This document shows positions 3,176 through 62,967 of a stretch of DNA of 64,000 bases, piece after piece. Under the pieces are notes generated by a model that made no database searches, was not told where the DNA came from, and worked only from the letters and a program-made list of their open reading frames with translations. Where the stretch lies: the IMG/VR virus record IMGVR_UViG_3300024262_003767. One strand, given 5' to 3'. The translations under genes were made by a program, and so were the position numbers. This DNA is from a virus. The first letter of the stretch is position 1. Each line of letters opens with the position of its first letter.

Positions 3176-3222
3176 ATCTATTTTTATTTTTATATATAAA
3201 AATGTTATGGTAATGTTATATT

Positions 3223-3483
3223 CTAATTTAGATTTTGTAACTTTTTTATTCTAACATATTTTAATAAGTCTGAAAAGTCTAATTTTACAACATTCAACAT
3301 TTGTCTCATATTAAATCTATTATAACTAGGTGTGGATTCAACATCAACAAAATATGCTATCTCACAATCACAATTAATATCTATAATACCGATATTTTTA
3401 TTATCAATTTGATAAATTGATTTGACACTCAAATTGTATTTGTGTTCTAAATAATCATTTATTATTTGTTCTTTGAAAACCAT
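3223..3483 (-). CDS. hypothetical protein
   Basis: 86-aa ORF co-oriented with neighbours; no recognisable motif. Confidence 0.4.
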   Translation of the reverse strand: MVFKEQIINDYLEHKYNLSVKSIYQIDNKNIGIIDINCDCEIAYFVDVESTPSYNRFNMRQMLNVVKLDFSDLLKYVRIKKLQNLN

Positions 3484-3671
3484 TTTCTTGTGATTTTATC
3501 GAAAATCTTATCTCCATAATATTTTATAACGGTGGCAATTGTTGATATAACAAAAGATGCAACGATACTATCAAGTAATCCGAAACCATAAAATACCATA
3601 GATATTGTTATTACTATAAATATTAGTAAAAATAAGATTTTATATTTCTCCATTATTTGTGTAACTTTCAT
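3462..3671 (-). CDS. small hydrophobic membrane protein
   Basis: 69-aa ORF, hydrophobic core LFLLIFIVITISMVFYGFGLL...ISTIATVI. Confidence 0.4.
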   Translation of the reverse strand: MKVTQIMEKYKILFLLIFIVITISMVFYGFGLLDSIVASFVISTIATVIKYYGDKIFDKITRKWFSKNK

Positions 3672-3689
3672 ATTATGATTTATTTATTT

Positions 3690-4088
3690 TTAGTAATAAT
3701 TTATATAATTTACAATTGGTAAAAATAAATTTTTAGGGAAATTTTTCCAATCAAACCATCCAATTTCTGTACATTTTTCAGGTTCCATAATTTTGGCATC
3801 ATACGATTTAGATTGACACCTTACAAAAATTGTAATATAATGCAAATCCTCTTCAATAAACATATCATTAGTAAATCTATCAACTTGTAAATTGATGATA
3901 TCTAGTCCTGTTTCTTCTTTTGCTTCTCTGATTGCACAATCTACAATTGTTTCAAATTTGTCTAATTTTCCACCAGGGAAACTCCAGGTTCCTTCGCTGT
4001 GAGCACCTTTTCTTTTCATTAGAAGAACTTTACCATCGTAATCTTCTATTATAACACCTACGCCTATGTGTGGTCTATTACATTTCAT
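3690..4088 (-). CDS. NUDIX hydrolase
   Basis: Nudix box GKLDKFETIVDCAIREAKEETGL fits Gx5Ex7REUxEExGU. Confidence 0.85.
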   Translation of the reverse strand: MKCNRPHIGVGVIIEDYDGKVLLMKRKGAHSEGTWSFPGGKLDKFETIVDCAIREAKEETGLDIINLQVDRFTNDMFIEEDLHYITIFVRCQSKSYDAKIMEPEKCTEIGWFDWKNFPKNLFLPIVNYINYY

Positions 4089-4437
4089 TTTCTATTTTAT
4101 TTAATTTGGTTTTTCTTATATCTTTTTCTAATTTTTTCTTTAATCTATCAAAATCTGATATTTCAAAGAAATACTCAAATGCATTTTCATATGTTTCTTT
4201 TGTGATATAATATGTCTCTCCGTCTTTGGTATATGTTCGGGGTGGTAGTATTTTAAAAAAGTATGTAGTATCACGATTAAATCCAGAACTTCTTTCTAAT
4301 CTGATTATATCACCACTATATAAAAAAGTAAACATTCCTCTATCTACATATTTAGTATTGGTATTTTCATCGGGTATATCATATCCTTTCTGAACCCCAA
4401 TATCAATCAATCCTAATATAAATTCATCATTCATCAT
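4078..4437 (-). CDS. hypothetical protein
   Basis: 119-aa ORF; start/stop overlap with neighbours suggests an operon. Confidence 0.5.
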   Translation of the reverse strand: MMNDEFILGLIDIGVQKGYDIPDENTNTKYVDRGMFTFLYSGDIIRLERSSGFNRDTTYFFKILPPRTYTKDGETYYITKETYENAFEYFFEISDFDRLKKKLEKDIRKTKLNKIENEM

Positions 4438-5215: not shown

Positions 5216-5216
5216 T

Positions 5217-5651
5217 TTAATAGTCTGTTATTAATTTTCCAATTAGATGATCATATTCGTGTTGAATTATACGTGCCATAACACCTTCAAATTCTTGTTG
5301 TTTATACTCCCATGCTCTATTGTGATATTGTATTCTAACTCTACCTTTTCGTGTGACAGTTATTGGTATATCAGGCACACTCAAACAACCTTCAGTCATT
5401 TGTTCTGAATGACCAAATGCGTATATTTTAGGATTTATATATGTTTCCTCAAAACCTTCATATGAAACAATAAATAGGTTTAAATTTTTACTAACTTGTG
5501 GTGCTGCTAATCCAACCCCAGTTGATGATCTCAAAGTTTCAAACATATCCGATATTAACTTTTTAGAATGTTCATTATTTATAACATCTATGTTTGGTTT
5601 TCTTAATATACCTCTTGGATCTTGATTATATTTTATTACATCTAATATCAT
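5217..5651 (-). CDS. def: peptide deformylase
   Basis: All three PDF motifs present: GVGLAAPQV, EGCLS, QHEYDHL (HExxH). Confidence 0.9.
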   Translation of the reverse strand: MILDVIKYNQDPRGILRKPNIDVINNEHSKKLISDMFETLRSSTGVGLAAPQVSKNLNLFIVSYEGFEETYINPKIYAFGHSEQMTEGCLSVPDIPITVTRKGRVRIQYHNRAWEYKQQEFEGVMARIIQHEYDHLIGKLITDY

Positions 5652-5657
5652 TATTTG

Positions 5658-6491
5658 TTATATAATTTTTAATTTTTTAAGTTTATCTTTATCATAAACT
5701 TCTATTTTTTTGTCTCTATATTGTTTTTTAAAAGCAAGATATTTATCTTTTGCATCATCTCTCCACCAGCCTTTAACTTCAACATATAAATCACAATCAA
5801 TAAGGTAAAAATCTGGTCTATATGTTCCTTCAGCATTATTATAATTGATAGGAAATGCTTCTGGTTCAAAGAACCATTCTATGTTATTTTTATCCAAATA
5901 AGTTGCATATTTTATTTCCCAAGAACTTCTCATCCACACAGAATCACCATTTTTACATTTATACCATTCACCTTTACCATGATAACATTTACCATAAAAA
6001 TTAGATTCCTTACCTCTTTTTACATTTTTACTTTTATTGATTAGCATTTTTTGATATCTTATGTTTGCTTCTATTTCGCCATATTTTTCTAACCAAACAC
6101 TAAATACTGAACGACCATACATTGGATTTTTATCACCAGACATTTTGACACTTATCTTTTTTTTAGTTTTGTCTGAATGATAATTACCTATGTTAGATTG
6201 ACTTATTTTTTTCTTTACCTCGTCTGTTCTATGCTTACCTTTAAAATGATGTGTATTATTTTTGTGCCATTCGATAAGTTTTTCAATCTTAACATCTTTA
6301 TTTGTATTCGCATTCACTTTATTAGAACACGATAAGCATAGATCATTTTTAACTGCATATCTATATTTTTTTTCTACTTCAGCATCACAATCTTTACATT
6401 TCCAAATTACAGTCTTTTCGCTACTTGGTTTCAAATCATTTGAATAATACCCAAACATATCCTTTGTTTTTTGTTCTAAAATAATACCCAT
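5658..6491 (-). CDS. homing-endonuclease-like protein with NUMOD3-type repeats and C-terminal PD-(D/E)xK nuclease-like domain
   Basis: NUMOD3-like repeats (HSDKTKKKIS, GDKNPMYGRS), N-terminal Cys pairs CKDCD..CLSC; C-terminal RPDFYLIDCDLYVEVKGWW = PD...EVK. Confidence 0.55.
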   Translation of the reverse strand: MGIILEQKTKDMFGYYSNDLKPSSEKTVIWKCKDCDAEVEKKYRYAVKNDLCLSCSNKVNANTNKDVKIEKLIEWHKNNTHHFKGKHRTDEVKKKISQSNIGNYHSDKTKKKISVKMSGDKNPMYGRSVFSVWLEKYGEIEANIRYQKMLINKSKNVKRGKESNFYGKCYHGKGEWYKCKNGDSVWMRSSWEIKYATYLDKNNIEWFFEPEAFPINYNNAEGTYRPDFYLIDCDLYVEVKGWWRDDAKDKYLAFKKQYRDKKIEVYDKDKLKKLKII

Positions 6492-6554
6492 AACATTTAT
6501 ATATTTTTCGATTATATATAAATATATACCAGTTGTATTTGTACCAAAAACAAA

Positions 6555-7390: not shown

Positions 7391-7446
7391 AATCTGAACT
7401 AGTCAGACTACGATGTATTAAAATACCTCATACAACTATATATTAT

Positions 7447-7838: not shown

Positions 7839-8660
7839 TTAAGAAATGTTTTCAAGTTTTAATGCTCTGATTTGTTTTTTAGAAAAAATATTAGTTTTTG
7901 ACTTCTTTATTAAATGTGAAAATATTTTATTTTGTATTAATTTTTTCTTTACGGAAAAATCCGCATTTACTATTTTTTCTTCAAATTCAATTAAACATTC
8001 AGGCTCACGACCATCACCTAAATAAACTTTATCTCCTACTGTGTGAAACCAAAACCATTCTATTTTAATGTCATTTTCTTTAAACAATTTATCTACTTCT
8101 GAACTTAAATAATAATAAAAATATGTTAATAATTCAGTTAAAAATTCAGTTTCAGAAAATCCATCATTACTATTTAAATAATAATACCAAAAATTACTAG
8201 GTTCAACACCTAACTCAAGACAAAGATTATCAATTTTATCAATATTTTTGTTGGTTTTATTAAAAACATAGTCATTAAACAAACTTTTAAATGATTTAGT
8301 ATCTCCATTACCTTTATCACAATTACATTTTGAACACATTGTCTGATAATTGGTAGAAGTGTTTTTACCACCTTTAGATTTTGGTATGATGTGATCTTTC
8401 GTCATTAAAATTTCATCACCGTTTTCATTTACACCATACATATTGATGTGATATTTTTCAATTTCGGGTAAATGCTTCTCAATTGCTAAAAAAATTCCTT
8501 CAAGTCCACATTCAACACAGAATCTATTTTCTTGAAATAATTTGTATCGTTGTGAGGTTATCTTAACAGTAACCCCGTTAATTGTTCGGTATCTATTTGG
8601 TCCTACACTATCCTTTAGTTTTTTTAAATAACTTATATCTAATTTACTATGTCTTATCAT
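7839..8660 (-). mobile_element. HNH homing endonuclease
   Basis: HNH motif TKDHIIPKSKGGKNTSTNYQTMCSKCNCDKGN; Cys pairs CVECG; sits between conserved genes, typical of a free-standing HEG. Confidence 0.75.
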
Positions 8661-11070: not shown

Positions 11071-11120
11071 AATTTTAATGCTTTTTCTTTTATATATAAA
11101 TAAAAATATTTTTTGTTTAA

Positions 11121-13342: not shown

Positions 13343-13423
13343 AAATTTCCATAAATTATACATTTTTTAAACTTCACAATATTTTTTAATATATAATCAT
13401 CAAATTAAAAAATAATTTGTGAT

Positions 13424-15514: not shown

Positions 15515-15604
15515 AATTTTTTGATGTTTTATTTTTATATATTGATTTTTTATAAATAAAAAATAATTTTTAATATATAGATAGAGAAAAAATAACAATT
15601 TCTA

Positions 15605-16657
15605 ATGAAACATATTACACCTTTTAAAATTTTTGAAAATATCTCATATGATAAATTAGTTCCAATAGCAACAAATGAAATTAATTGGGGTTGGGAAGAC
15701 GATTCTGTTCATATTAAAGCGACAGTATTTTTCGATCCAACTGGTTCAGGCGAATTATTTTTAAGTATAAGAAGAGTACACACAAAACATGGACTTGGTG
15801 CTGGCAAATTTCCAAGTGATGTAATATCTTACGAACCAATAGGAACAATTGATAAACCAGATTTAAGAAAAGTACAACAATTATTGAGTAAACATAAATA
15901 TGGAACTTCATCTCGTGCGGGTGGAGGTGGTTTCAAAAGACAGTGGACTGACAATAAAGGTGATAATGTAGCTCTTGGTAAAATTATAACTAATTCTAGA
16001 TATCTTAAAATGTCCAATTTAAAAAACAAATTAGCAAAAAAACATACACCAAAAACTGAGATAATTGAAGATATAAAGATTATGAAATATGGTAGAGGTT
16101 ATGTTGTTTATGGACAAGGTACAAAGGCTATTAAGGATAAATTAAAACAAATTGGTGCTAGATTTAATTTTAGATTAACACATCCTGTAACAAAAGAAAA
16201 ATTTGTAGGTTGGGTTATTTCACCAAGCAAATTAAATGATGTTAAACAACTAGCTGGGGTTAAAATTATAACAGAATCTTATGTTTCCCAAAATTTAAAA
16301 AATGATATAAAAGAAAATTTTGATGATGGCGAATTGGTTAGATTTTTTCCAAAAATATATGAAGAATTTTTTGATATTATAACTGAAGATGATGAATTGG
16401 ATTATTCTGATTCTGATGAAGATGATATAGAATTTGATTTTGCTGAAGCCGTCAAAATGTACATTATGGATAATTTTGATGAAACATTAGAAATTAATTT
16501 CTTAGAATCATATTTAAATGAAAAGGAATTTAGTTCACCTTCAAAAGATTATAGAGATCTAAGTGAAAATGCTAAAATTATTTATGATAATTTAGAACAA
16601 AGATTAGAAATAGTTTTTTGGACTGCGTTAGAAAATCAATTAATAAGTAGTTTATGA
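15605..16657 (+). CDS. hypothetical protein with acidic C-terminus
   Basis: 350-aa ORF; Gly-rich SSRAGGGGFKRQW; upstream TTTTAATATATAGA motif. Confidence 0.55.
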   Translation: MKHITPFKIFENISYDKLVPIATNEINWGWEDDSVHIKATVFFDPTGSGELFLSIRRVHTKHGLGAGKFPSDVISYEPIGTIDKPDLRKVQQLLSKHKYGTSSRAGGGGFKRQWTDNKGDNVALGKIITNSRYLKMSNLKNKLAKKHTPKTEIIEDIKIMKYGRGYVVYGQGTKAIKDKLKQIGARFNFRLTHPVTKEKFVGWVISPSKLNDVKQLAGVKIITESYVSQNLKNDIKENFDDGELVRFFPKIYEEFFDIITEDDELDYSDSDEDDIEFDFAEAVKMYIMDNFDETLEINFLESYLNEKEFSSPSKDYRDLSENAKIIYDNLEQRLEIVFWTALENQLISSL

Positions 16658-16986
16658 AATATTTAAAAGTTTACGAAGAACACACCAAAAAGTATATGCC
16701 TATCTGTATATGGATTGGAGAAGGTGAGGATAGTTGGGATAGTTATTTTTCTGATGATATTGAATTTGATTTTGATGAGGCTCAAACTCGGTTATCAACT
16801 ATGAGAAGCGATTGGGAAAAGAATCAACCTGATGTGTATGATCATTATAAATTATCATTTATGGTTATACCATATTACAAATATGTTGCTATTCAAGATA
16901 TCGAAAAAGGTAGTGAGATAATGGAGTTATTAAATGATAATGAAAGATTAAATTTATTGATACAGTCAAAAAAATATAATTTATGA
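16654..16986 (+). CDS. hypothetical acidic protein
   Basis: ATGA overlaps with flanking genes. Confidence 0.5.
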   Translation: MKYLKVYEEHTKKYMPICIWIGEGEDSWDSYFSDDIEFDFDEAQTRLSTMRSDWEKNQPDVYDHYKLSFMVIPYYKYVAIQDIEKGSEIMELLNDNERLNLLIQSKKYNL

Positions 16987-17408
16987 AAAAATTTGAAGAA
17001 TTTAAAATTAATGAATCTTCAACACTCAAATACTCTGTTGTTGGAAGATTTATGACTAATAATGTTAAAAAATGGTTTTTTTCTGAGAATGACAATTTTG
17101 CTGAACTTAATTATTGGAACAAGAATCCAGATTATGCTTTTGAATTTAAACTCAAAAATTTCGATAAAGATATAATATCAAGGGTTGAAAAAATGAGAGA
17201 TTTTTTTAACTTAAAAAGAGATTGGAAAATAGTAGCAATAACATCAAGTAGAGTAGGGTTTTATTTTCATATAAAATCTGATGATATGCCTATAATCTTA
17301 GAAAGATTAAAAGAAATAGATCCTGAAAATATTAAAACAATTGATAGTCTTTTAAAAGGTTTAGAACAACGAAAAATATTAAATACTGCTAATAAATATA
17401 ATTTATAA
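16983..17408 (+). CDS. hypothetical protein
   Basis: 141-aa ORF, translationally coupled. Confidence 0.5.
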   Translation: MKKFEEFKINESSTLKYSVVGRFMTNNVKKWFFSENDNFAELNYWNKNPDYAFEFKLKNFDKDIISRVEKMRDFFNLKRDWKIVAITSSRVGFYFHIKSDDMPIILERLKEIDPENIKTIDSLLKGLEQRKILNTANKYNL

Positions 17409-17500
17409 TTATAAACTTTTTGACTAAATTTTTTTATATATAGACAAGTTTTAAAAGAATTAATTGGAGGTAATTTACTTACCTTTAAAAAAAAATTTTT

Positions 17501-18367
17501 ATGACGAAAGTAGATTACAAAACGAATTATATTGAACCTCAAGATTTTAACCTCTTAATTTCAAAATTAAGAGGATTTTTTATGGAAAATGGTTTCCTTG
17601 AGACATTTCCACAACCTAAATTAACAATACTTGCAGCGTGTGAAGACCCAAAAACTGTTAGAAGTTTTGAATTTGGTGGTGAAAAATTTCCACTACCCCA
17701 AACAAATCAGATGAACTTGGAAGAAGAACTTATGGTAGACTCAACAATAGATGGACTTTTTTGCTTAACAGCATCATATAGAGATGAACCAAACCCTATT
17801 GAAGGTCGCCACATGAAATCATTTCCAATGTTTGAAGCAGAACATAAAGGGGATTTTTCAAATCTAATACAAACAATAAGTGAGTGTTGTGTGTATTTAG
17901 GTTTAGTCGAAAAGGTTGCCGATATCCCAATATTCACATATGATGAACTTTGTGAACATTATAAAGTTGAAGATTTAACTTCTACTGAAGAAACATTGAT
18001 GTGTAAAGAATATGGTGATGTTGTCGCTATTACTATGTTTCCTGATAGGACAGATCCATTTTTCAACATGCGTGTTGATGGTTGTAACTTAAAAGGTGAA
18101 AAATTGTCCAACAAAGTAGATTTTATTGTTTGTGGACAGGAAACATTTGGTTGTGCTGAAAGAGAGATAGACATAAACTTAATGAGGAATAACTTCCACA
18201 CAATTAGTAATGGCGGGTATTCTGGACTATTATTTGAAAAATTTGGTAAGGAAAGAGTTGAAAAGGAATTGGAAGACTTTTTGAAATTGCCAATGATTGA
18301 AAGGTGGGGATTTGGTTGTGGTTTGACTAGATTATCAAGAGCAATGAAAAAGAAAGGATTAATTTAA
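17501..18367 (+). CDS. class II aminoacyl-tRNA-synthetase-like catalytic core protein (EpmA/GenX- or AsnA-like paralog)
   Basis: LRGFFMENGFLETFPQP resembles EpmA/LysRS motif 1 (IRRFFADRGVLEVETP); C-terminal ERWGFGCGLTRLSRAM resembles class II motif 3 (GxGxGxDRL); only 288 aa, so no anticodon-binding domain. Confidence 0.55.
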   Translation: MTKVDYKTNYIEPQDFNLLISKLRGFFMENGFLETFPQPKLTILAACEDPKTVRSFEFGGEKFPLPQTNQMNLEEELMVDSTIDGLFCLTASYRDEPNPIEGRHMKSFPMFEAEHKGDFSNLIQTISECCVYLGLVEKVADIPIFTYDELCEHYKVEDLTSTEETLMCKEYGDVVAITMFPDRTDPFFNMRVDGCNLKGEKLSNKVDFIVCGQETFGCAEREIDINLMRNNFHTISNGGYSGLLFEKFGKERVEKELEDFLKLPMIERWGFGCGLTRLSRAMKKKGLI

Positions 18368-18386
18368 TTAATCCTTTCTTTTTTTA
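18352..18386. terminator. bidirectional hairpin terminator between convergent genes
   Basis: gaaaggattaatttaattaatcctttc perfect inverted repeat followed by a T-run; overlaps both gene ends. Confidence 0.55.
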
Positions 18387-19362
18387 GTAAAATATAATTT
18401 TTACTGATGGAATTATTTATTATTCCTTCATAACTTATTCTATTTGAACCTATCAAATTTAATTTGATATTAAGTTCATTAAAATATTTTCTCATTTCAT
18501 TTCTACCTTGAAATTCTTCAATTTTATCATCTGGACATTTTATTGTATATAACATCAATTTTCTATGTGACATTTGTGATGATTTATTTGTTCTTTTATT
18601 TACACTCCAACTCATATTTCGATAATCATTAGATTTATTATATAGATTATATCCTTTAGATCCATTTTTATATAATATTGCTGCTGGGCTTATTTTGTGT
18701 TTACCTGTTAATTTTTTTTCTTCATTCAATTCTCTAAAATACCCATGTACATTTTTTGAACCACTCATTTTTATTATATCTCCTTGTGGTGTCTTTATTT
18801 CATAAATTACTGATAGTGTTTTTTTTATTTTGTCAATAGTAATGCTAGTTTTATTTTTTTTGTAATTGGCGTTTTTGTGTGTCTCATAATACCTTTTTAA
18901 AGAGTCTCCAATTTTTTTCAATTTAGTTGCACTTCGTTTACTTTCTTGAAATTTTTTTGATATTTTTAACGATGCTGATATATTCTTTTTATGTTTATCT
19001 GTAAAAATTACACCACTTTCACCTTCACCACCATCACTTAAATTTATTAATGATCCTAATTTTAAATCTTTCCTTCCTATCTTTTTTATTGTAAGTTTTT
19101 CTAAATTAAATGATATATTTTCCTTTAAATTTTCATACAATTTAATAATTATTGGTTCTACCCCACTCTCTCTAATTTTTTTAATTTTATAGTACCGTAT
19201 TTTACTTTTTTTTATAACACTTTCATATAAGTGTACTTTAAATCTATCACCCTTACCTTTACCGACATAAAATGGTTCATGATCAAAAATTAAATCATCA
19301 AAAATATATTTACCAGGTTTTCTTGGATCTAAATAAACATAAACATAAAATTCATCACACAT
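18364..19362 (-). mobile_element. GIY-YIG homing endonuclease
   Basis: N-terminal YVYVYLDPRKPGKYIFDDLIFDHEPFYVGKGKGDRF (GIY...YVG motifs); long K-rich DNA-binding tail. Confidence 0.75.
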
Positions 19363-19464
19363 TTCTTTTCTTTTTATTCTATATATAAAATAAAAAATGT
19401 CATATTTTTACACTTTTTTGTAAAAGTAGAACTTTATGAATTTATATATAAATATAAAAAGAAT

Positions 19465-20017: not shown

Positions 20018-20080
20018 ACACTATATATACTTATAATAACATTAAGTTGCTATTTTTGTGTGTGATAGATAATTCTATTT

Positions 20081-20676: not shown

Positions 20677-20790
20677 TTATATTAATTTTGAAGTTATTTA
20701 TACCATTTATATATTCAATGTTTTACACAAGTTTAAAAATTATTATATAAACTACATTGCAAAACTACTAAAAAGATTTAGAAATAAAAA

Positions 20791-23243: not shown

Positions 23244-23295
23244 AAAACTTTATTAGTTTTACAAATATATATTTTAATAAAAAATTGGGTATTTT

Positions 23296-24113: not shown

Positions 24114-24923
24114 TTATTTGATATTTACAACATAAAATGCTTTCTTCTTATGAAGAACATCAATGAAAGTGATGCTAGTGTTGTCACCTTTATATGGTTT
24201 TAAAGTGTGAACATCACCACAAGGATTATGTCCAACTATCTGATGATATCCAACTATTGGTTTATTTGCCAATTCTTTATCTAACCATAGTGGTCCACCT
24301 ACTTTACAATGTCCACCTCTACGATGACCAACATCAAACATACATTCCATTCTATGAGTAAATGCCAAATTCAATTTATCTGCAAGGTTGTTGATTGTAT
24401 AATCAATTTCCATTCTTTTTAGAAATTCTTCTACTTTATAGAATTCTTTATCAAATCTAGTATTGTACCAACCTTTGTGTACGCCTGCGTGAGTGAATAG
24501 ATAATTTTCAACTTGAAATGCCATTTGAAACAACTCAAAGTTTTTATTAAATAGTTCATATAAATCAAATCGCATTTCTGGACGATAACCACTACATTCA
24601 TATTTATTGCTATGAATCCAAGGTGAAGTTAATGCGTAATGTAATTCGTGATTACCCCACAACAGAATAACATTCCGTGGATAAAGTGTTTTGAATTTAA
24701 TTAAATCAATTATATTTTCTCGTATCTGATTGTTATCTTTATCAAAAGCATCACAGTAGTCACCAAGAAAAACATAATAATCATAATCCATATCAACAAT
24801 ATCATATATCTGGTTGCCTTCTTCCATTTGAAGAAGGTAACTGATATCGGCAAAAGTTTTCCAAACATTTCTACCGTGCAAATCTCCTATGACCATTATT
24901 TTTTTCATAATGCAAAGATACAA
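24114..24923 (-). CDS. PPP-family metallophosphoesterase (Ser/Thr phosphatase / ApaH-like)
   Basis: GDLHG, GDYCDAFD (GDxxDRG-like), GNHE motifs in canonical order. Confidence 0.8.
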   Translation of the reverse strand: MYLCIMKKIMVIGDLHGRNVWKTFADISYLLQMEEGNQIYDIVDMDYDYYVFLGDYCDAFDKDNNQIRENIIDLIKFKTLYPRNVILLWGNHELHYALTSPWIHSNKYECSGYRPEMRFDLYELFNKNFELFQMAFQVENYLFTHAGVHKGWYNTRFDKEFYKVEEFLKRMEIDYTINNLADKLNLAFTHRMECMFDVGHRRGGHCKVGGPLWLDKELANKPIVGYHQIVGHNPCGDVHTLKPYKGDNTSITFIDVLHKKKAFYVVNIK

Positions 24924-24933: not shown

Positions 24934-24966
24934 TATAAAAAAAGAGGTATTACCTCTCTTTTTTTA
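24934..24966. terminator. hairpin terminator overlapping the 3' end of the hpf gene
   Basis: A-run, agagg-tatta-cctct, T-run. Confidence 0.5.
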
Positions 24967-25684: not shown

Positions 25685-25701
25685 ATGTTATATATTATTA
25701 A

Positions 25702-25974: not shown

Positions 25975-26030
25975 ACTACTTTCTTTTTTTATTATATATT
26001 AAATATTATATTTGTAAAAAAATTGTACAT

Positions 26031-39912: not shown

Positions 39913-39931
39913 AACAAAAACTTTTCTAAAC

Positions 39932-39959: not shown

Positions 39960-39975
39960 GTTTAGAAAAAATGGA

Positions 39976-41106: not shown

Positions 41107-41175
41107 ACGATTTTTTTTAAGTTAAACATTTATTTTAATTACTCACAATATTATAGAACCATTAAAAATAAAGGT

Positions 41176-44050: not shown

Positions 44051-44139
44051 GTTATTTGATTATTTATTATTTACTTATATATATTAAATTGTAAACTTTA
44101 AACCGAAAAATTAATAAAAAGTAAAAATAAAGTCCAACA

Positions 44140-44694
44140 ATGTCATTAACAACAACTGCGGTAAGTTCTAACTATGGCACATTAACCGTCTCAGGTACAC
44201 TTTCAGGTTACACAACAACATCATCGACAATAACAATATGTACAGGGTACACTTACGCAGGTTATGGGTATTCACCTTATCTAATGGGTGTTGATGTTGC
44301 TTATTCAAAATTATCAAATTTAGATTATGAAATAGAATTTTCATATGATGTTGACGATCATTTAAAAAATAGTGTAAGTTTTATAAATCATAAAAAAATC
44401 ACATTTAATTGTGATTTTGTGGAGAAAGATAGAATTCAACCTTATGAACTAATAATGAAAATGATAAGTGAAAAAATAAAATTCGATATCACAATTGATG
44501 TGAGTGATATTTTAACAGTTAAATATCTAGATGTTAGGTTTAAAGATATTGAAAATAATTTTTTATTTAATGGTAAGTGTGACTTTAGTACATTACAAGT
44601 TAAAATTAAATATAAGAGTATAATTTACGATAACCATAAATTACACATAACAGAAAAACGAAAAGATAAATTAAATAAAATAATGGAATTGTGA
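44140..44694 (+). CDS. hypothetical protein with S/T/G/Y-rich N-terminus
   Basis: 184-aa ORF. Confidence 0.5.
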   Translation: MSLTTTAVSSNYGTLTVSGTLSGYTTTSSTITICTGYTYAGYGYSPYLMGVDVAYSKLSNLDYEIEFSYDVDDHLKNSVSFINHKKITFNCDFVEKDRIQPYELIMKMISEKIKFDITIDVSDILTVKYLDVRFKDIENNFLFNGKCDFSTLQVKIKYKSIIYDNHKLHITEKRKDKLNKIMEL

Positions 44695-45284
44695 TAGATA
44701 GAAGAAATGATATATACAAAATTCTCAATTTAAAAAATTATAAACTTGGTATAGAAGTGGGTACTTTTGAAGGTGATTTTTCAAGAACTATTTTAAGTAC
44801 TTGGAATGGTACATTATATTCTTTAGATATTTGGAAAACATTAGATAATGAAGAATATGTTGATACTAGTAATAATATCACACCATTTGACACATTAGGT
44901 AAGACTATTATTAATATTGAAGGATTTGAAGATAGGAGTGTCTTAATAAGAACCTCATCAGAAAATGGTTCAAAAATATTTCCTAATGAATATTTTGATT
45001 TTGTTTATATTGATGCAAATCATAAATATTCTTATGTTAAACAAGATATAGAATTGTGGTATCCAAAAATAAAACATGGTGGTATGATATCAGGTCACGA
45101 TTATATTAACGATTATAAACCTGATCAAACGGTTAATGGATATGATACTAATGTATGGATAGATAATAATTTTTGTGGATTGTTTGGAGTAAATCCTGCG
45201 GTTGATGAATTTGTTAAAAAATATAATCTAGATTTAAATATAACAAGTGAATATTTTGGTACATGGTACACATTTAAAAAATAA
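44691..45284 (+). CDS. class I SAM-dependent methyltransferase-like protein (TylF/MycF-type, tentative)
   Basis: Motif-I-like LGIEVGTFEGDFS; acidic residue after beta2 (YSLDIW); GHDY. Confidence 0.4.
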   Translation: MIDRRNDIYKILNLKNYKLGIEVGTFEGDFSRTILSTWNGTLYSLDIWKTLDNEEYVDTSNNITPFDTLGKTIINIEGFEDRSVLIRTSSENGSKIFPNEYFDFVYIDANHKYSYVKQDIELWYPKIKHGGMISGHDYINDYKPDQTVNGYDTNVWIDNNFCGLFGVNPAVDEFVKKYNLDLNITSEYFGTWYTFKK

Positions 45285-49472: not shown

Positions 49473-49538
49473 AATTAATTTTTTTAGTTATAATTTATAT
49501 ATTTAATTTTCTTTATAGGAGTTTTCCTCTTTTGTTTA

Positions 49539-52078: not shown

Positions 52079-52164
52079 AATATTTTATTTATTTTTATGT
52101 TACAAAAGTAATACTTTTTTTAATAATAAAAAAATTGTATTGTTAAAGAATAACAATACAATTT

Positions 52165-52620: not shown

Positions 52621-52974
52621 TTACAGTTTCTGTAACATAGTTATTATTTCGGTTAATGTTTCATCGTAATTGAGAATTCTTTTGTGTAAACTCTCATATC
52701 TTTCGTGGAAAAAGACATCACGATTTTTTACTGTAATATATGTGTCGTCTTTTTTGAAATTTATCTTAAATTGGTAGTTTCTATTATCATACTCAATATT
52801 ATGAATAACTTCATTATATTGAAAATCTCTCCACGTTCTACTAAATCTAGTTTTAATAACAAATTTGCATGGTTCATTTTTAAAAACCTTATTTAGATTT
52901 TCCAGTTCAATACGTATATGTCGTCCTCTTTGGTTATACATATTATATTCATCTATTTTTGTTATCATAATCAC
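52621..52974 (-). CDS. hypothetical protein
   Basis: 117-aa ORF. Confidence 0.5.
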   Translation of the reverse strand: MIMITKIDEYNMYNQRGRHIRIELENLNKVFKNEPCKFVIKTRFSRTWRDFQYNEVIHNIEYDNRNYQFKINFKKDDTYITVKNRDVFFHERYESLHKRILNYDETLTEIITMLQKL

Positions 52975-52981
52975 TATATAT

Positions 52982-53016
52982 AAAAAAAACCTCCCAAAAA
53001 ATTGAGAGGTTTTTTA
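52982..53016. terminator. bidirectional terminator downstream of the flotillin gene
   Basis: A-run, aacctc-ccaaaaaattga-gaggtt, T-run. Confidence 0.65.
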
Positions 53017-53033
53017 AGATTAAACATTAAAGT

Positions 53034-55265: not shown

Positions 55266-55721
55266 TTATAAATTATATTTATCCATTTGATCCATTTGAT
55301 CTTTCACATTCTTTCTCAAATCATCCAAATTTGTGAGTTGTTGTCTTGGATGACGAATTTTCAGTCTATCAGATATTGCATCCAATATAAAAGGTTCTAT
55401 ATCTTGATATCCTTTATTTTCTACCATATCACTAATATCTTTTGGTAACCAAATTTGATAATATTTAAGTTCACTATCAAAATTTCCTCTTGCTTGCAAT
55501 CCTTGTATATTAGACATTCCTTGACGGTCTTTATTAATTTTTATCATCTTTTCAATACCTAGAACTTTTTTAAATCTACCATCTTTTTCTTCAATAAATT
55601 CAGGTCTTGCCACAAAAGCAAATAAGTCATGTTCTTTACTATTTGGATTCATATCAAATAGTTCTTGAAATACTTTTAAATCTTCTTCACTATATCCTTC
55701 AAAATATTTTAAATGTTCCAT
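55266..55721 (-). CDS. hypothetical protein
   Basis: 151-aa ORF sharing a start/stop nucleotide with the C1 peptidase gene. Confidence 0.5.
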   Translation of the reverse strand: MEHLKYFEGYSEEDLKVFQELFDMNPNSKEHDLFAFVARPEFIEEKDGRFKKVLGIEKMIKINKDRQGMSNIQGLQARGNFDSELKYYQIWLPKDISDMVENKGYQDIEPFILDAISDRLKIRHPRQQLTNLDDLRKNVKDQMDQMDKYNL

Positions 55722-56407: not shown

Positions 56408-56431
56408 AGAATGTGATTTTTATTCTATATA

Positions 56432-57583
56432 TTAAAATTCAGAATTATAAATGGATTTGTAAAATTTACCCCAATTAAAATACTTATCCATTGTTTGAAA
56501 TATATCATCAAGAGTTATCTTATGAATAAGGTGTTCCATACTCCAACATTCAGGTTCAATATATTTATTGACATTTGCGTGTCTTAATATGTCGTTCTTT
56601 TTTAGTTTAACTAAAAAATTATCTTTAATAATATCAAATCTATCTTGTGTCAAATAAATTTCTTTATTACTTAATACTTTACCTATTTCTTCTTGCAAAT
56701 GCTCTACATTCTTATTTGAAGTCTCAGTTAAGATTGTAACAACTGAAGATGTATTATTTAATTTTTGGTTAATACATTGAACATAATATGCTAATCCTGA
56801 TTTTTCTCTAATTTCTTGATATAGTGGAGAATTTAATCCAGAACCTAACATACTACAAGTATAACTAATTAATGGAAAATCTTCAGTTGCAACATTTGAA
56901 ATATTTATAATTGATTGTTTATTTTTATATTCGTTAATTAACTCTAACGGCACTAAACCTTCGGGTATAATGATATCATCATTAGTTCTAATTCCAAATG
57001 TTTCCGTTTCGATAAATTTGAATGGGGTATTTATAATACTATCTCTAAAATCAACATTAAAATCAAAATCATTGTTTTTAGATACATTAATTATCATTGT
57101 AGGTTTCTTATAGAAAAGATTTAAATATTCTTTACAATCATCTAAAGTGAAATTTTCTATATCACACCTTAATCCTATTGGGTGATAATAACCAAACATT
57201 TTTCTATTTAAATTTAGAAAATGGTTATTCATCTGTTCATTAAATGAATCTTTATATTCTTCCAAAACAATTTTTTTCTCATTTTCTAATTCTTCTTCTG
57301 TTGGATCATAAGATAGAATCAATTCTAGAAATTCATATTTATATTTATTAACATATTCATCCAATCCATTCATATAAAAAACTACTTCTGTATTAGATGT
57401 ATATGCGTTCCAAGCGACACCATATCTTTGAAAATCATCTTGTAAATGTTCAAATGACTTACAAATTAAATGCTCACAGATATGGGAGGCTCCAAATGTT
57501 CCAACTTTTTCTACCATTGTAGATCCATCAAATATTATATAAAATGAGGATAATTCTATTTCACTTTTAATGTTTTTTATCAT
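56432..57583 (-). CDS. M16 (insulinase/pitrilysin)-like zinc peptidase
   Basis: Inverted zinc motif HxxEH: HICEHL; 383 aa. Confidence 0.55.
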   Translation of the reverse strand: MIKNIKSEIELSSFYIIFDGSTMVEKVGTFGASHICEHLICKSFEHLQDDFQRYGVAWNAYTSNTEVVFYMNGLDEYVNKYKYEFLELILSYDPTEEELENEKKIVLEEYKDSFNEQMNNHFLNLNRKMFGYYHPIGLRCDIENFTLDDCKEYLNLFYKKPTMIINVSKNNDFDFNVDFRDSIINTPFKFIETETFGIRTNDDIIIPEGLVPLELINEYKNKQSIINISNVATEDFPLISYTCSMLGSGLNSPLYQEIREKSGLAYYVQCINQKLNNTSSVVTILTETSNKNVEHLQEEIGKVLSNKEIYLTQDRFDIIKDNFLVKLKKNDILRHANVNKYIEPECWSMEHLIHKITLDDIFQTMDKYFNWGKFYKSIYNSEF

Positions 57584-58111: not shown

Positions 58112-61100
58112 TTAAAAATCTGTTATCAAAGATGATATCAAATTATCATTTTTCTTAACAGTTATTAATCCATCATAATTTATTGGATGAACATGCTCAA
58201 TTATAATAATTTTATCAATTTTATTTTTTATTTCGTCTAATAGTTCAATAAATTCCATAACAGATTTTTCATATAATTTGCCCATAATCTCATCAAGAAT
58301 AATAAAATTAGGTCTTGATTTTACATTAATTTGTCTTAATGCAATTTTTAATGTTAATGCACAAAATGTTCTTTCTTTACCTGATGATTCGATTGCATTT
58401 TGTGAAACATCTAATCTATCATCCATACTTAATTTTAAAATTAAATCATCATTAAAGAATAATGTAAAATCAACATTAGTCAATAAGTCGTTCAATTCTT
58501 TATTTATTAGATGTATAGATTTTTTTAGAAGATAAGTAGGAATACCGTCTCTGGATATACATCTCTGGTACTCTTTCATTAGTTCTTCTTGCTTTTTTTG
58601 TTGAATAAATTTCTCAATTCGTGATTGAATATCTTCTATTGATTTTTCTAATAATGCTATTTCTTTTTTAATTTCAGATATTACTATATATTTTTCATCA
58701 ATATTACTTTTCAATTCTAAAATATACACATCTTTATCATCAATGTCTAATTGAGTTTGTTTATTTTCCTCAATTTGTGATTCATACATTTTAAAATTAT
58801 TAATAGTTTGTTCTATTTCTTTAATCTTCAAAAGATAATTATCAATATTTAATGTTAGTTTTTCTTTTAAATTGACTTTATCTTTTCTTAGTTCGTAATT
58901 TTCTTTAATTTTTTCTTCATGTTGAATATCATCTTCAATAGATTCAATATTTAATGATTTTAACTCGTTTTCAAGATTTTTAATTACCGATAAATTGTCA
59001 TTTTTATCTTTATCTAATTTTTTCAATAACATTTTACCTTTATCAAATTTATTTTTTAATTCTTCATTAATTGATAAATCATTATTTTTTAATCTTTCAA
59101 TTAACGATTCAATCATTAATATTTCATTCTCAAGATATTTAGTATCTTGAAGAACGTTTAATTCTGATAATATTTCTTCGTCATATTCACCACTTGTTAA
59201 TTTATCTCGTTTTAATCTGAGAGTCTGAATTTTTTCCTCTAATTCGGGTATAATAGGTGTTAAATCTTTATATTCCTCAATTAAATCCTTTATTTTAATA
59301 GTATTAATTTCTATATCATGTTCTAATGTTTTAATCTTTTCTTGAATGTGTTCTAAATGATCGGGTGTAGATTCGTCATAATCTCTACCACATGCAGGAC
59401 AAAAACTTGAATTTTTAAATTCTTCAATTTCTTGAAGTTTCTCATCATTTCGTGATTTTAAATTTGAACCATCTTTTTTCAGATTTCTAATTTTATTTTC
59501 GAGATTAATTTTTTCAAGTTCATTCTTCTTTATCTCATCTTTAATTGATATTATTTTTGAGTTTATTATACTCAATTTTTCACTTTCAACATTAGAAATT
59601 TCTTTTTCTTTAATGTTAATTTTGTCTTTTAAATTATTAATTTCTTTATCTCTAAACTCTCTAAGTTTTTGTTTTACTTTATCAACCTTCGTATCAATTT
59701 CATTATTATTTGTTTTAACTGATGATATTTCTTCTTTTATTTTTGAAATTTTATCATTAGTTAATTTTAATTTATCTTTTAAATTGTTAAGTTTATCTGG
59801 CTCAAATTTAGAAGGTAATTCATTTATATCTCTATCATAGATACTTATTTGTACTTTATTATCATCAATCTTTTGATTATAATTTGATAATGTATTATTT
59901 GAAATATTCAGATCAAAATTGATCATCGATTCATCAATTTTATTTAATTTTTTAATTAAATTATCTCTTAAAGAATTTTCACTATCCAATTCTAATTTAA
60001 AATCTATAATCAATTTCTTTTGTTCTTTTATCGTATTTTTCTTCTCTTCTATTACATTTACGATTTCAGAAATCTCTTGCTCTGATTGACTAACATCAAC
60101 TATAATTTTTTCAATGTTGAGATCTTTTTTATAATCTTTATATTCATTTTGTTTCTTTTCAAAAATATCATAACCAGCATCTCTAATGATGCTATCCATA
60201 AACACACTTCTATCAGCAGATAAAAGTTCATTCAAATTATCTGCATTAGTTAATGATATTCTAACAAAATCTTTAAAATCACCAAGAATAAGATCTAATT
60301 TCTTTTGAGTTTGAGTTTTTCTTTCACCAGTTTGTTTATTCTTTTCTTTTATTTCTTCAGTATCATAATAGTCCACATTGGTAGAACAAGATTTTATTTC
60401 TCCACTTCTATTTTCATCTCGTTCAGTTTTTCTCAAAATTGTAATTTTTTCACCATCAATATCTAAAACAGCGCCACCTGAACATTTATTTAATTTTCGT
60501 TTATTGTTAATATATCTATTATCACCGTGTTTTTCTCTTTTTACGGTAGTTGTGGTTGTACCATAAAGAATATATGTTATAACATCTAAAATAGTAGTTT
60601 TTCCTTGTTGGTTTTCACCATGAATTTGTATGATACCATTTAAATCTTTCCAATCAATTTTATTTTTATCACCAAAAACTCTAAAATTATCAAACCAAAA
60701 TTTTTCAATTTTCCACTCAATGTTAGTTTTTTGTTCTTTAATCTCTAATCTATCATTAATTAAATCATCAATTTTTAAAATTTCATCAATATCATTTTTT
60801 TTATATCCTTGTTCTTCAAGATATTCTTTAAATATTTTACGTTGAGTTTCAACATTTGTTAAATCTAATGTTTCAGATAACATTTTAGATGAAACCATAT
60901 CTGTATAAATGTATGTTTTATCAAATTTTACTTTGGTTGAATCATATTTATTTTTAATAAAGTTTCGTATTTTTCTTTCATTTTCAGTATTGATGTTGGA
61001 ACTTAAATCTTTCCAATGCACTTTAAATTCAGGAAAATTTCCAATTCTTTCATTTGTGTGTAATGTCAAATTATCATAATCTTCACCTTCATTGATATAT

Positions 61101-61279
61101 AAATTGATAAATGTATATTCATTAAGAATATCTATTTCTTCAACTCTAAAGTCAGTTTTACTTTTTATATCCCAAACCAAAAATCCATGTTTATCAACAT
61201 CTTCACCAAATGATTGTTGAACTGGACTACCAGGGTAACCAATAGTTGGTATTTTTTTCTTTATTTTTATTTTAGACAT
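58112..61279 (-). CDS. Rad50/SbcC (T4 gp46-like) ATPase with an N-terminal ~185-aa segment matching the C-terminal part of Mre11/SbcD
   Basis: aa 10-25 IPTIGYPGSPVQQSFGE = SbcD/Mre11 GSP..SF.E motif; Rad50 Walker A GENQQGKTTILDVITYILYG at ~aa 215; long coiled coil; zinc hook CPACG; Walker B/D-loop FIILDE near C-terminus. Confidence 0.8.
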   Translation of the reverse strand: MSKIKIKKKIPTIGYPGSPVQQSFGEDVDKHGFLVWDIKSKTDFRVEEIDILNEYTFINLYINEGEDYDNLTLHTNERIGNFPEFKVHWKDLSSNINTENERKIRNFIKNKYDSTKVKFDKTYIYTDMVSSKMLSETLDLTNVETQRKIFKEYLEEQGYKKNDIDEILKIDDLINDRLEIKEQKTNIEWKIEKFWFDNFRVFGDKNKIDWKDLNGIIQIHGENQQGKTTILDVITYILYGTTTTTVKREKHGDNRYINNKRKLNKCSGGAVLDIDGEKITILRKTERDENRSGEIKSCSTNVDYYDTEEIKEKNKQTGERKTQTQKKLDLILGDFKDFVRISLTNADNLNELLSADRSVFMDSIIRDAGYDIFEKKQNEYKDYKKDLNIEKIIVDVSQSEQEISEIVNVIEEKKNTIKEQKKLIIDFKLELDSENSLRDNLIKKLNKIDESMINFDLNISNNTLSNYNQKIDDNKVQISIYDRDINELPSKFEPDKLNNLKDKLKLTNDKISKIKEEISSVKTNNNEIDTKVDKVKQKLREFRDKEINNLKDKINIKEKEISNVESEKLSIINSKIISIKDEIKKNELEKINLENKIRNLKKDGSNLKSRNDEKLQEIEEFKNSSFCPACGRDYDESTPDHLEHIQEKIKTLEHDIEINTIKIKDLIEEYKDLTPIIPELEEKIQTLRLKRDKLTSGEYDEEILSELNVLQDTKYLENEILMIESLIERLKNNDLSINEELKNKFDKGKMLLKKLDKDKNDNLSVIKNLENELKSLNIESIEDDIQHEEKIKENYELRKDKVNLKEKLTLNIDNYLLKIKEIEQTINNFKMYESQIEENKQTQLDIDDKDVYILELKSNIDEKYIVISEIKKEIALLEKSIEDIQSRIEKFIQQKKQEELMKEYQRCISRDGIPTYLLKKSIHLINKELNDLLTNVDFTLFFNDDLILKLSMDDRLDVSQNAIESSGKERTFCALTLKIALRQINVKSRPNFIILDEIMGKLYEKSVMEFIELLDEIKNKIDKIIIIEHVHPINYDGLITVKKNDNLISSLITDF

Positions 61280-62148
61280 TTATTTAATTTTATTTTAAAT
61301 TCACCATTTAGAATATTGGTTTCCCAGAACCTTAAAATATTAAAATTATTAGATTTTGAAAGTTCATCTTTAAAAATATCATTTTCAATATTTAACATCT
61401 GAGTCTTATTTAATTCATTTATATTAAATATGTTGGGGTTAGCATGCCAATAATCACCATCTGCCTCAATAATTATATTTTTATCTATTAACATAAAATC
61501 ATATATTTTATATCTTAATTTACCATCAAGTTTATAGTATATTCTAAATTGTGGTTTATATTTTATTGATTTTTCATCTAAAAAATCACCTATAATTTTT
61601 TCTATTTTAGTTTTACTTTTTTTAAATAACCCTTTATGTGCGATTTCCGTCATACTTAAACCATATCTTTCAATGCAAGTATTATTAATTTTTTTTCTAC
61701 ATTCATCGTCTTTCCAATTATGTGTTGTACCATATCGTTCTAAGAACGTATTTTTTCTTTTTATTTTTGATTCAGGTTTCCATCCAAATGGAAATTCATT
61801 ATTTTGATTATATTCTAATTTAGATTTCCTAACTTTATTTTTATAATTTTCATCACTCCACAATTTTTTAGTTATTTTTGAATGTAAATCTTTACTTTCT
61901 TGTGTTTTTACCTTACCAAACATTGGATTTTTTTCACCAACATATATAATTTTTTTATGCTCATCACAACATTTCCTTGAGCAATATTTTTTATCATCAG
62001 ATACTAATACTTCAATATCAACTCCACAATTTATACAATAAATAATTTTTCTTTCAACCTTAGATTTCTTATAATCTTTATATTGACATTTCCTTGAACA
62101 ATATTTCTTATTATTATGTTTCTCACCACAAACTATACATTTTTTCAT
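61267..62148 (-). mobile_element. homing-endonuclease-like ORF inserted between the two halves of mre11
   Basis: N-terminal Cys pairs (CIVCG..CSRKC; CINCG; CSRKC); NUMOD3-like NPMFGK; ERYG repeats as in ORF 1422; C-terminal DUF559/Vsr-like YKIYDFMLIDKNIIIEADGDYWH. Confidence 0.55.
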
Positions 62149-62191
62149 AGATTTTTTGTTGTTTTATAGTATATATAAAAATATAATACTA

Positions 62192-62848
62192 CTATTCTGA
62201 TAATATCCAACCATTTTTTAAATATTCATCTAAGTCTTTATCATCTATCTCCATTTCTACTTCTTTATATTTGAAAAACTGCCTTTTATGTATATCACCA
62301 AGAAAAAGAAAATCATTCTTTTTAAAATCATTAATACTCTTGTACATACTATCAGTAAAAAATTTACCTCTATCGGTAGAACTATTTTGTATAGGGTCAT
62401 GAAACAAACCTATATAAATTTGTTCTTTTTTCTTTGTTTGTCCAACCCAAGGATCATTTAATTTGTCAGGGTGATCATATACAACCCAAGATATATTACC
62501 TTCATCATAAATACCTGTTGTGTCATAATATGTCACATTAGGATTATCAATCAATTTAACTACAACCTTTATACTATCAGTTCTATTTAAATTTTTCTTA
62601 CGCAAATCGTGATTACCTCTTGTTATAATAACTTTGGCTATATGTGAAAGTTTGTTTAAAAATTCACCACCGAGTATTTTTGCTTCATTGGAAATTTCAA
62701 TAAAATTTTCAAATAAATCACCAACAATTACAATTTTTTCTGGTTGTCTTATTTTTAATTCGTTATATATTTTTTCAAATACTTCTCTATACTCATCATG
62801 TCTCTCTACATTTCTAATGTGTACATCTGCTAAATGTGCTATCTTCAT
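62192..62848 (-). CDS. Mre11/SbcD (T4 gp47-like) nuclease, N-terminal phosphoesterase half only
   Basis: Motifs I HLADVH, II VGDLFE, III RGNHD, IV LFHDP, V GDIH; ends after 218 aa, before the GSP/SF.E motif that reappears at the start of ORF 58112..61279. Confidence 0.8.
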   Translation of the reverse strand: MKIAHLADVHIRNVERHDEYREVFEKIYNELKIRQPEKIVIVGDLFENFIEISNEAKILGGEFLNKLSHIAKVIITRGNHDLRKKNLNRTDSIKVVVKLIDNPNVTYYDTTGIYDEGNISWVVYDHPDKLNDPWVGQTKKKEQIYIGLFHDPIQNSSTDRGKFFTDSMYKSINDFKKNDFLFLGDIHKRQFFKYKEVEMEIDDKDLDEYLKNGWILSE

Positions 62849-62967
62849 TCAACTTCTTATTTTTTATTTAGAATAAATCTAATTATTATATGTTATACCC
62901 TTGAAATAGTTTAATGAAAAATAAATTATGAATTTTTATATATAAAAGAAAATTAATCATTAGTCAC

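Follow-up and report, generated by a model that had tools for sequence, protein, structure and literature searches.

What marks the starts of transcription units in the genomes of Mahaphage/Lak-type megaphages? To our knowledge these are the largest known phages, none of them has been cultivated, and we know of no account of how their genes are switched. A 64,000-nucleotide stretch of DNA from one such phage (IMG/VR virus record IMGVR_UViG_3300024262_003767), here called the window, raises the question directly, as a short A/T-only box recurs in front of its genes. A first-pass annotation of the sequence had described this box as a 21-mer upstream of at least 13 genes and proposed it as a phage promoter. 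We found no earlier description of the motif in the searchable literature.

We find that the box has the form TTT-W-ATATATA-R, followed five bases on by an A. It is very probably a promoter, as the annotation proposed; position, orientation bias, conservation, cross-genome prediction, and start-site register all bear this out in silico. The reading we favor overall, and hold to be reasonably probable, is a single-box phage promoter used most likely by the host's multisubunit RNA polymerase by way of a phage specificity factor.

Enrichment, conservation, and orientation of the box

We aligned 18 window sites to define the informative part of the motif. They share a run of T's, W, an invariant ATATATA, and R (A in 15, G in 3), followed by A-rich positions at +4 to +8. 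This is shorter than the annotated 21-mer, which is nonetheless recurrent and enriched: with up to three mismatches it matched 11 times versus 0.82 expected, and none of 100 shuffles reached 11. In half of the strong sites the core is preceded by A rather than T, and the box always ends in R, never in Y, making the consensus asymmetric. No −35-like element is present in the 18 sites, where positions −20 to −6 relative to the core are uninformative except for the adjacent T-run, and TATAAT is not enriched in intergenic window DNA (29 matches versus 25.1 expected). Neither result fits a sigma70-type −35/−10 promoter, for which TTGACA would be expected about 17 bp upstream.

The core, ATATATA[AG], occurs 33 times on the two strands of the 4,048 nt of intergenic DNA, while 300 dinucleotide shuffles of the same DNA gave 3.87 ± 2.09 matches and at most 12. 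Coding DNA contains 16 matches in 58.5 kb, or 0.27 per kb, 30-fold lower than the 8.15 per kb between genes. The motif is therefore more frequent than in either shuffled or coding sequence. The longer form TT[AT]ATATATA[AG] was found 17 times in intergenic DNA versus 0.5 in shuffles. The shuffles rule out a compositional or chance origin; we rejected a microsatellite because TA repeats number five at most, and a mobile repeat because no similarity extends beyond about 24 nt. We relied on anchored counts, shuffles, and a matrix from another genome in place of expectation-maximization under the zero-or-one-occurrence-per-sequence (ZOOPS) model, which, run with a zero-order background, degenerated because everything matches in such A/T-rich DNA. 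ATG-only calling of open reading frames (ORFs) left a 389-nt "gap" at 44695-45083 that is actually coding, so that intergenic totals are slightly overestimated and the motif statistics unaffected; the GTG-start ORF there (44691-45284) is a Methyltransf_24 protein in the ENA gene calls.

The exact core lies 13 to 33 nt upstream, in gene orientation, of 13 of the 14 gene starts that had been listed as carrying the motif. The 14th, 29530(+), has it only as the variant TTTTTTATATATAT, 21 nt upstream. This variant is one reading of the palindrome TTTTTAATATATATAAAAAA at 29499-29506, in which the plus-strand copy ends in T; read on the other strand, the same site is ATATATAA and lies 33 nt from the ATG at 29465(−) of the CCA-adding enzyme gene. 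About 27 window genes have the core within 60 nt upstream, more than the "at least 13" first counted.

The window has a GC content of 26%, is about 91% coding, and is also found on ENA contig ERZ27249621:k141_682913. It holds no tRNA genes and no match to an Rfam family, and a megablast of 24 kb of it against GenBank phages gave no match. Its gene content is typical of huge phages, with ClpC, ClpS, ribosomal protein S1, NusG, a ribosome hibernation factor, and peptide deformylase; further genes encode Tpt1, a CCA-adding enzyme, thymidine kinase, NAPRTase, a hybrid histidine kinase, SbcCD, and six homing-endonuclease-like proteins. It also carries a conserved gene for a 614-amino-acid (aa) protein (42206-44050, minus strand). 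Among 50,697 GenBank phage records, this protein matched only the largest genomes of Al-Shayeb et al. (2020), namely LR756501 and LR756503 (735 kb, 41% identity), LR756502, LR745206, LR756504, and LR756500. More than 400 homologues are known from metagenomes, and 501- and 531-kb contigs carry some of these. Al-Shayeb et al. (2020) assign every genome larger than 634 kb, as well as the Lak phages, to the Mahaphage clade, for which they predict Bacteroidetes hosts. We assign the window to a Mahaphage/Lak-like megaphage.

Conservation of the box extends across this clade. Its core is kept 16 to 24 nt before the ATG of the 614-aa gene in all relatives examined, which together with the window make up 10 genomes at 33 to 87% amino acid identity. 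The orthologues are 85% (locus L011), 81% (L012), 70% (L013), and 56 to 60% (L004 to L006) identical, and the remoter ones 41% (LR756501), 35% (L007), and 33% (L003, which is LR745206). In the window this best-conserved site lies at 44075-44082(−), 24 nt before the ATG at 44050. The flanks diverge upstream of these orthologues, and only the core and AAAGTTTA, about 8 nt further upstream, are kept.

Enrichment of the core in intergenic DNA was likewise seen in all related loci examined. In LR756501, a complete genome of 735,411 bp and 999 ORFs, intergenic DNA has 263 cores versus 29.1 ± 5.1 in shuffles (about 9-fold) and 136 copies of TT[AT]ATATATA[AG] versus 3.5. A core stands within 40 nt upstream of 166 of the 999 ORFs, spread genome-wide. 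We trained a 24-nt matrix on LR756501 sites only and applied it to the window, where it found 19 matches of at least 10 bits versus 1.7 expected. All 19 are intergenic and lie 4 to 79 nt upstream of a same-strand gene. The box is thus predictable from genome to genome and would offer a transcription-unit map for genomes of 0.5 to 0.7 Mb, the first for these uncultivated phages.

Box placement follows the layout of transcription units. The core lies within 60 nt of 22 of the 48 window genes with an upstream gap of at least 40 nt, versus 2 of the 31 with a gap below 15 nt. By matrix score, the box marks 15 of 50 candidate transcription-unit heads in the window versus 1 of 38 internal genes; the corresponding counts in LR756501 are 123 of 402 and 43 of 595. 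At 52969-53033, the T-run of a terminator hairpin leads directly into a box. This box, with core ATATATAG at 52974-52981(−), lies 5 nt before the ATG at 52968 and has its T-run in common with the intrinsic terminator at 52978-53013(−).

The box is also oriented. Within the window and nine related loci, the asymmetric copies in co-directional gaps face the downstream gene 20 times and away from it 5 times (P = 0.002), counts that are not fully independent, as some of the nine loci are orthologous to the window. Palindromic copies make up 10 of the 35 in these gaps. The annotation had also noted that the box often serves divergent gene pairs, and single quasi-palindromic sites do lie midway between divergent starts. 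One of them, TTTTATATATAAAA at 11090-11099, is separated by 19 nt from the ATG at 11070(−) and by 21 nt from that at 11121(+), scoring 15.6 and 11.7 bits on the respective strands. The many palindromic copies, and the several copies between divergent genes, could be taken to suggest an operator, that is, a quasi-palindrome (TTTTTATATATAAAAA) bound by a dimeric regulator of the phage or by a nucleoid-type protein and overlapping promoters of a different kind. The asymmetry of the consensus and the 20-to-5 orientation bias speak against an operator, as do the downstream A's at +5 to +7, which have no upstream mirror image. No other common promoter element stands beside the sites. We therefore give the operator very little credence.

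Distance to the start codon and a probable second promoter class

The distance from box to ATG has a fixed geometry. In LR756501 it is bimodal: 33 genes form a sharp peak at exactly 4 nt, and a second, broad one spans 14 to 24 nt. The 4-nt class reads TTTWATATATAG-NNNY-ATG, and its final box base is G in 27 of 33 genes. In the 14- to 24-nt class the final base is mostly A, and of its 101 sites 92%, 93%, and 83% have A as the fifth, sixth, and seventh base after the box, respectively. The same positions carry A in 78 to 89% of window sites. Both distance classes thus have an A at the fifth base after the box, which is most simply read as the transcription start. Such a start would place WATATATA at −13 to −6 and R at −5, make the mRNAs of the 4-nt class leaderless, and give those of the 14- to 24-nt class leaders of 10 to 20 nt.

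In the window, six genes have a box-to-ATG spacing of 1 to 5 nt. Spacing of the leaderless type is seen for a second copy of ATATATAG at 20021-20028(−), 3 nt before the ATG at 20017; for the core at 25688-25695(−), 3 nt before 25684; and for that at 36858-36865(+), 4 nt before 36870, which scores 15.4 bits and is kept in L011 to L013. Leaderless genes of Mycobacteria, Deinococcus, and archaea have a constant spacing between a −10 or TATA element and the start codon. The sharp box-to-ATG peak (33 LR756501 genes at 4 nt, 3 to 5 nt in the window) is of the same kind. The megaphage case differs in that the box is phage specific and the phylum has mostly leadered mRNAs (PMC6847099). About one-fifth of the sites are of this type.

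The T4 late promoter, TATAAATA, is recognized by gp55 together with gp33 and the sliding clamp gp45. Its consensus lies between −13 and −6, and position −13 is A or T in many T4-like phages (PMC1524935). Variants of T4-type late boxes include WATAAATA in other T4-like phages, CTAAATA in Aeh1, and, for the jumbo phages CBB and GAP32, ATAAATA plus an A/T-rich stretch; in CBB, ATAAATA and the A/T-rich sequence after it precede structural genes (PMC5259590). The annotation had likened the megaphage box to the T4 late box, and the likeness extends to the register, which would be the same −13 to −6, with one base different, at −9. Both are single A/T-only 8-bp boxes with A or T at −13, with no −35 element, and with A/T-rich sequence downstream. 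Both occur at about one site per 4 kb and precede head and baseplate genes, and the literature groups this lineage with T4-like jumbo phages (Iyer et al., 2021, PMC7824862).

The megaphage box nonetheless departs from the T4 late box in several ways. Position −9 would be T rather than A (ATATATA versus ATAAATA), so that the box does not fit the consensus TATAAATA or WATAAATA. TATAAATA itself is not enriched in the window (4 versus 3.95 expected), nor much in LR756501 (42 versus 29.4). The megaphage box also has an extra T-run upstream, a conserved R at −5, and a subclass at a fixed 4 nt from the ATG; many nonstructural genes are served, and no gp55 homologue was detected in LR756501 or the window.

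Could the host read the box unaided? Bacteroidota promoters recognized by sigma-ABfr have TTTG at −33 and TAnnTTTG or TAHHTTTG at −7, with near-invariant T−12, A−11, T−8, T−7, T−6, and G−5 (PMC6847099). If a primary or alternative host sigma factor took TATATATA as its −10/−7 element, no phage factor would be needed. The box does share with these promoters a dominant single downstream element in A/T-rich surroundings, upstream of mRNAs without Shine-Dalgarno sequences, and the 4-nt spacing we infer between box and start equals the 4 to 5 nt of the Bacteroidota −7 element (PMC6847099). It precedes genes of all functional kinds genome-wide, and no phage sigma factor was detected. However, with R at −5 the box presents A−12, T−11, A−8, T−7, and A−6, at least four mismatches, and the other registers fail as well, leaving the near-invariant T−8, T−7, T−6, and G−5 unmatched in any of them. 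TATAAT, as noted, is not enriched, and TAHHTTTG forms a separate, rarer class at other genes of the same genomes. We therefore consider a promoter of the host type unlikely.

TAHHTTTG is moderately enriched in intergenic DNA of the window (16 versus 7.0), in the window plus relatives (47 versus 25.6 ± 5.0 in shuffles), and in LR756501 (123 versus 64.5). It is oriented in the sense direction 20 times and antisense 6 times, mostly 18 to 51 nt before the ATG, and the radical-SAM, 139-aa, and NAPRTase orthologues all retain it upstream. Window sites are at 9971(+), 23262-23269(−), 24913-24920(−), 26007(+), 39319-39326(−), 52103-52110(−), and about 1320(−); the element also occurs in L011 to L013 and LR756501. 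It is probably a second, host-type promoter class, and its separate enrichment and sense bias at other genes argue for two recognition systems. The annotation's idea of at least two promoter classes is thus supported, with the second class being the Bacteroidota TAHHTTTG instead of the sigma70-like −10 it had suggested.

That suggestion had come from an element upstream of the S1 gene, which we could not support as a general class. The element, AACCTTTA-N13-TATAAT, is common to 41107-41175, upstream of S1, and 34526-34625, upstream of the thymidine kinase gene. It is kept only in close relatives (L011 and L012) and is not found upstream of S1 in LR756501, where a few similar sites precede other genes. 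It may be a third promoter type.

The host is probably a member of the Bacteroidota. Three features fit: the enrichment of TAHHTTTG, the canonical intrinsic terminators of the window (hairpin plus T-run, of the bacterial type), and the scarcity of Shine-Dalgarno-like sequences, present in just 7 of 90 window genes. Bacteroidota mRNAs are without Shine-Dalgarno sequences (PMC6847099), as are huge phages that encode S1, and phage rpS1 has been linked to noncanonical ribosome-binding sites (Al-Shayeb et al.).

This scarcity, the phage-encoded S1, and its proposed link to such ribosome-binding sites also bring up translation: the box, sense oriented and close to start codons, might act in the 5′ leader as an A/U-rich enhancer, such as a ribosomal protein S1 site, in place of a Shine-Dalgarno sequence. 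We regard this as quite improbable. Operon-internal genes, before which the box is rare in the window and LR756501 alike, also need initiation, and boxes stand directly after terminators. The two distance peaks and the fixed A five bases after the box fit a transcription start better than a ribosome contact, and a loose A/U preference such as that of S1 does not resemble an invariant, alternating ATATATA.

What may read the box, and when

Another possible reader is a virion-packaged phage RNA polymerase, for which the box would be an early promoter like those of AR9 and phiKZ (AAATATATATTAT-N6-G). The similarity lies in an extended, highly conserved consensus of only A and T that includes ATATAT, with the start at a set distance of a few bases downstream (PMC5312081). 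Differences are that the start base is G in those phages and would be A here, and that their promoters drive early genes, whereas head and baseplate genes carry the megaphage box. AR9-type promoters need a phage multisubunit polymerase, and the DFDGD signature of the beta-prime subunit occurs in no ORF of at least 60 aa in LR756501 or of at least 50 aa in the window, a search that covers neither single-subunit nor highly divergent polymerases. We also considered the giant ORFs of LR756501 as virion polymerases and rejected them, as the largest are collagen-like proteins or glycosyltransferases. Iyer et al. report polymerases only in group 1 and in two jumbo phages of group 3. An early promoter of this kind is highly improbable.

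These findings favor the host core polymerase together with a phage factor, as do the bacterial-type terminators and the grouping by Iyer et al. (2021, PMC7824862), who placed Lak-B8 in the T4-like group 2.2, a group whose members lack their own polymerase; sigma factors and a gp33 orthologue are reported there for all T4-like group 2 jumbo phages. The T4-late layout with one base changed likewise suggests a host polymerase redirected by a phage sigma-like factor. In the promoter as we picture it, a T-run would lead into WATATATA (about −13 to −6) and R (−5); after four bases of any kind would come the initiating A and further A's, and there would be no −35 element. A phage-encoded specificity factor would direct the host multisubunit RNA polymerase to it, as gp55 does for T4 late TATAAATA. 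Transcripts would be leaderless where the ATG follows the box by 3 to 5 nt, or else have leaders of about 10 to 20 nt, A-rich and without a Shine-Dalgarno sequence, as expected for Bacteroidota translation. Quasi-palindromic copies would fire both ways between divergent genes. Whether the mechanism is of the T4-late type, with a phage factor acting on the host core enzyme, we judge an even call.

Hallmark late genes carry the box: in LR756501 it lies 19 nt upstream of the major head protein gene (phrog_138) and 20 nt upstream of a baseplate wedge gene (phrog_219). Late timing is plausible and goes no further than that, since the box precedes structural genes and also many others; that it is specifically late we rate slightly below even.

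Several observations weigh against the reading we favor. Box-bearing window genes include nonstructural ones, encoding GH16-like, epimerase, ClpC, C1 peptidase, and DeoC proteins, small ORFs, and at least three homing-endonuclease-like proteins, and the split DNA polymerase B gene of LR756501 has a variant box, TTTTTATATATAC, 19 nt upstream. Along LR756501, box and TAHHTTTG sites show no spatial segregation (Spearman rho 0.24, P = 0.19), so that no temporal modules can be read from position. Among candidate transcription-unit heads, about 30% have the box and 10 to 14% TAHHTTTG, which leaves 58 to 60% with neither. In LR756501 and the window, phmmer searches with T4 gp55, Atu_ph07 gp55, and sigma70 regions 2 and 4 found no gp55- or sigma70-like protein, and the best E value of a hidden Markov model (HMM) of 121 gp55 sequences was 0.3, which is noise. 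PHROGs and Pfam showed no transcription factor in the window other than NusG. Finally, the Bacteroidota host is probable rather than observed, and the register of −13 to −6 would follow from spacing statistics only.

Two candidates for a sigma-like factor were rejected. The weak top gp55 match, at 275058-275321 of LR756501, belongs to a family of small paralogues with a common C-terminal motif and is not sigma-like; neither are the small ORFs beside SbcC in the window. A more specific proposal, which we offer as speculative, is that the reader is a new phage specificity factor without detectable similarity to gp55 or sigma70 that retargets the Bacteroidota RNA polymerase throughout the largest phage genomes known, and that the roughly one-fifth of transcripts that would be leaderless are translated with the help of the phage's S1, NusG, and other translation genes. 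If true, the new factor and the phage translation genes would form a self-contained megaphage expression system.

The box has practical value as bait for a factor that redirects the Bacteroidota RNA polymerase. It also predicts co-regulated genes, including head, baseplate, and free-standing homing endonuclease genes, as well as leaderless mRNAs, and it would carry the layout of the T4 late promoter, altered at one base, into a very distant lineage.

Further sites and neighboring features in the window

Bit scores here and above were obtained with the LR756501 matrix, and distances run from box core to ATG. The best-scoring site in the window, at 56425-56432(−), is the exact 21-mer TTTTAATATATAGAATAAAAA with no mismatches, 17 nt before the ATG at 56407 of a papain-like peptidase C1 gene (18.8 bits). 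The palindromic core at 62938-62945(+) lies 22 nt before 62968, the start of a DeoC-family aldolase gene (16.2 bits), and the core at 25992-25999(−) 17 nt before 25974, that of a small lipoprotein-like ORF (16.1 bits). The GH16-like gene (2318-3175) has acatttttATATATAAaaataaaa at 3190-3197(−), 14 nt before its ATG at 3175 (15.3 bits). One divergent gap holds two separate sites: 15535-15542(−), 20 nt before the NAD-dependent epimerase gene (Pfam) starting at 15514 (14.4 bits), and 15573-15580(+), which ends in G and lies 24 nt before 15605 (12.4 bits). Another core ending in G is at 7436-7443(−), 45 nt before 7390 (12.9 bits).

Further sites include 19444-19451(+), 13 nt before a small ORF at 19465 (12.9 bits); 13389-13396(+), 27 nt before 13424 (10.2 bits); and 20707-20714(−), 30 nt before 20676. 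The core at 49495-49502(−), 22 nt before the ClpC/ClpB-like ATPase gene at 49472, has weak flanks and is kept in L011 and L012. Two palindromic cores are weaker candidates. One, at 1364-1371(+), is 50 nt before 1422 in a divergent gap with the gene starting at 1280(−), and the other, at 17436-17443(+), is 57 nt before 17501, the start of a class II aminoacyl-tRNA-synthetase-like gene.

Six free-standing homing-endonuclease-like genes lie within the 64 kb, at 1422-2321, 5658-6491, 7839-8660, 18364-19362, 37324-38334, and 61267-62148. Their types are DUF7487 (twice), endonuclease I/NUMOD3, HNH, GIY-YIG, and DUF4379/CapR. Three of the six have their own box 14 to 20 nt upstream, recalling the promoter-bearing free-standing endonuclease genes of T4. 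The DUF4379/CapR nuclease-like gene is preceded by ttattttaATATATAAgaataaaa at 38349-38356(−), 14 nt before 38334 (17.0 bits), and the GIY-YIG gene by tttattttATATATAGaataaaaa at 19379-19388(−), 16 nt before 19362, which also reads on the plus strand (16.5 and 13.4 bits). The endonuclease I/NUMOD3 gene (Pfam) has a core at 6512-6519(−), 20 nt before 6491 (14.7 bits), and a second at 6497-6504(−), 5 nt before the same ATG.

One of the DUF7487 ORFs (61267-62148) separates an SbcD-like N-terminal nuclease ORF (62192-62848) from an SbcC-like ORF (58112-61279) in the minus-strand region 58112-62848. A single 1202-aa ORF of LR756501 matches both, and the region resembles a fused gene of the gp47/gp46 type that a mobile endonuclease has split. 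Beside SbcCD in LR756501, about 10 small ORFs at 274 to 278.5 kb form a run whose products end in R-T-x-L-I-D-x-[ML]. Small paralogous proteins of the window, at 16654-16986, 16983-17408, and 55266-55721, have the common C terminus KYNL. DNA polymerase B of LR756501 is apparently encoded by two ORFs of 408 and 566 aa, 74 nt apart, at 708033-711034 (L031:8033-11034).

Among the expression-related genes of the window, the NusG homologue (39403-39912, plus strand) is convergent with the S1-domain protein gene (39976-41106, minus strand), and the two have a common bidirectional terminator at 39927-39964. The window also encodes the ribosome hibernation factor (24950-25249), peptide deformylase (5217-5651), and ClpC/ClpS. 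Two database records bear on how such phages are filed: a homologue of the 614-aa protein (P0090) is labeled "Candidatus Dojkabacteria bacterium" at NCBI, and the related locus L012 sits in NCBI genome assembly GCA_029940505.1. It appears that contigs of megaphages are ending up in bacterial genome bins.

The noncoding gap at 26474-26772 (299 nt) has three box copies on the minus strand. Two of them, at 26493-26500 and 26527-26534, are 19 and 53 nt before the ATG at 26473 (14.9 and 12.6 bits), and the third is at 26596-26603. The plus strand of the gap has a hairpin-rich stretch without a match in Rfam that ends in an intrinsic terminator at 26720-26754, and the gap may hold a small RNA gene.

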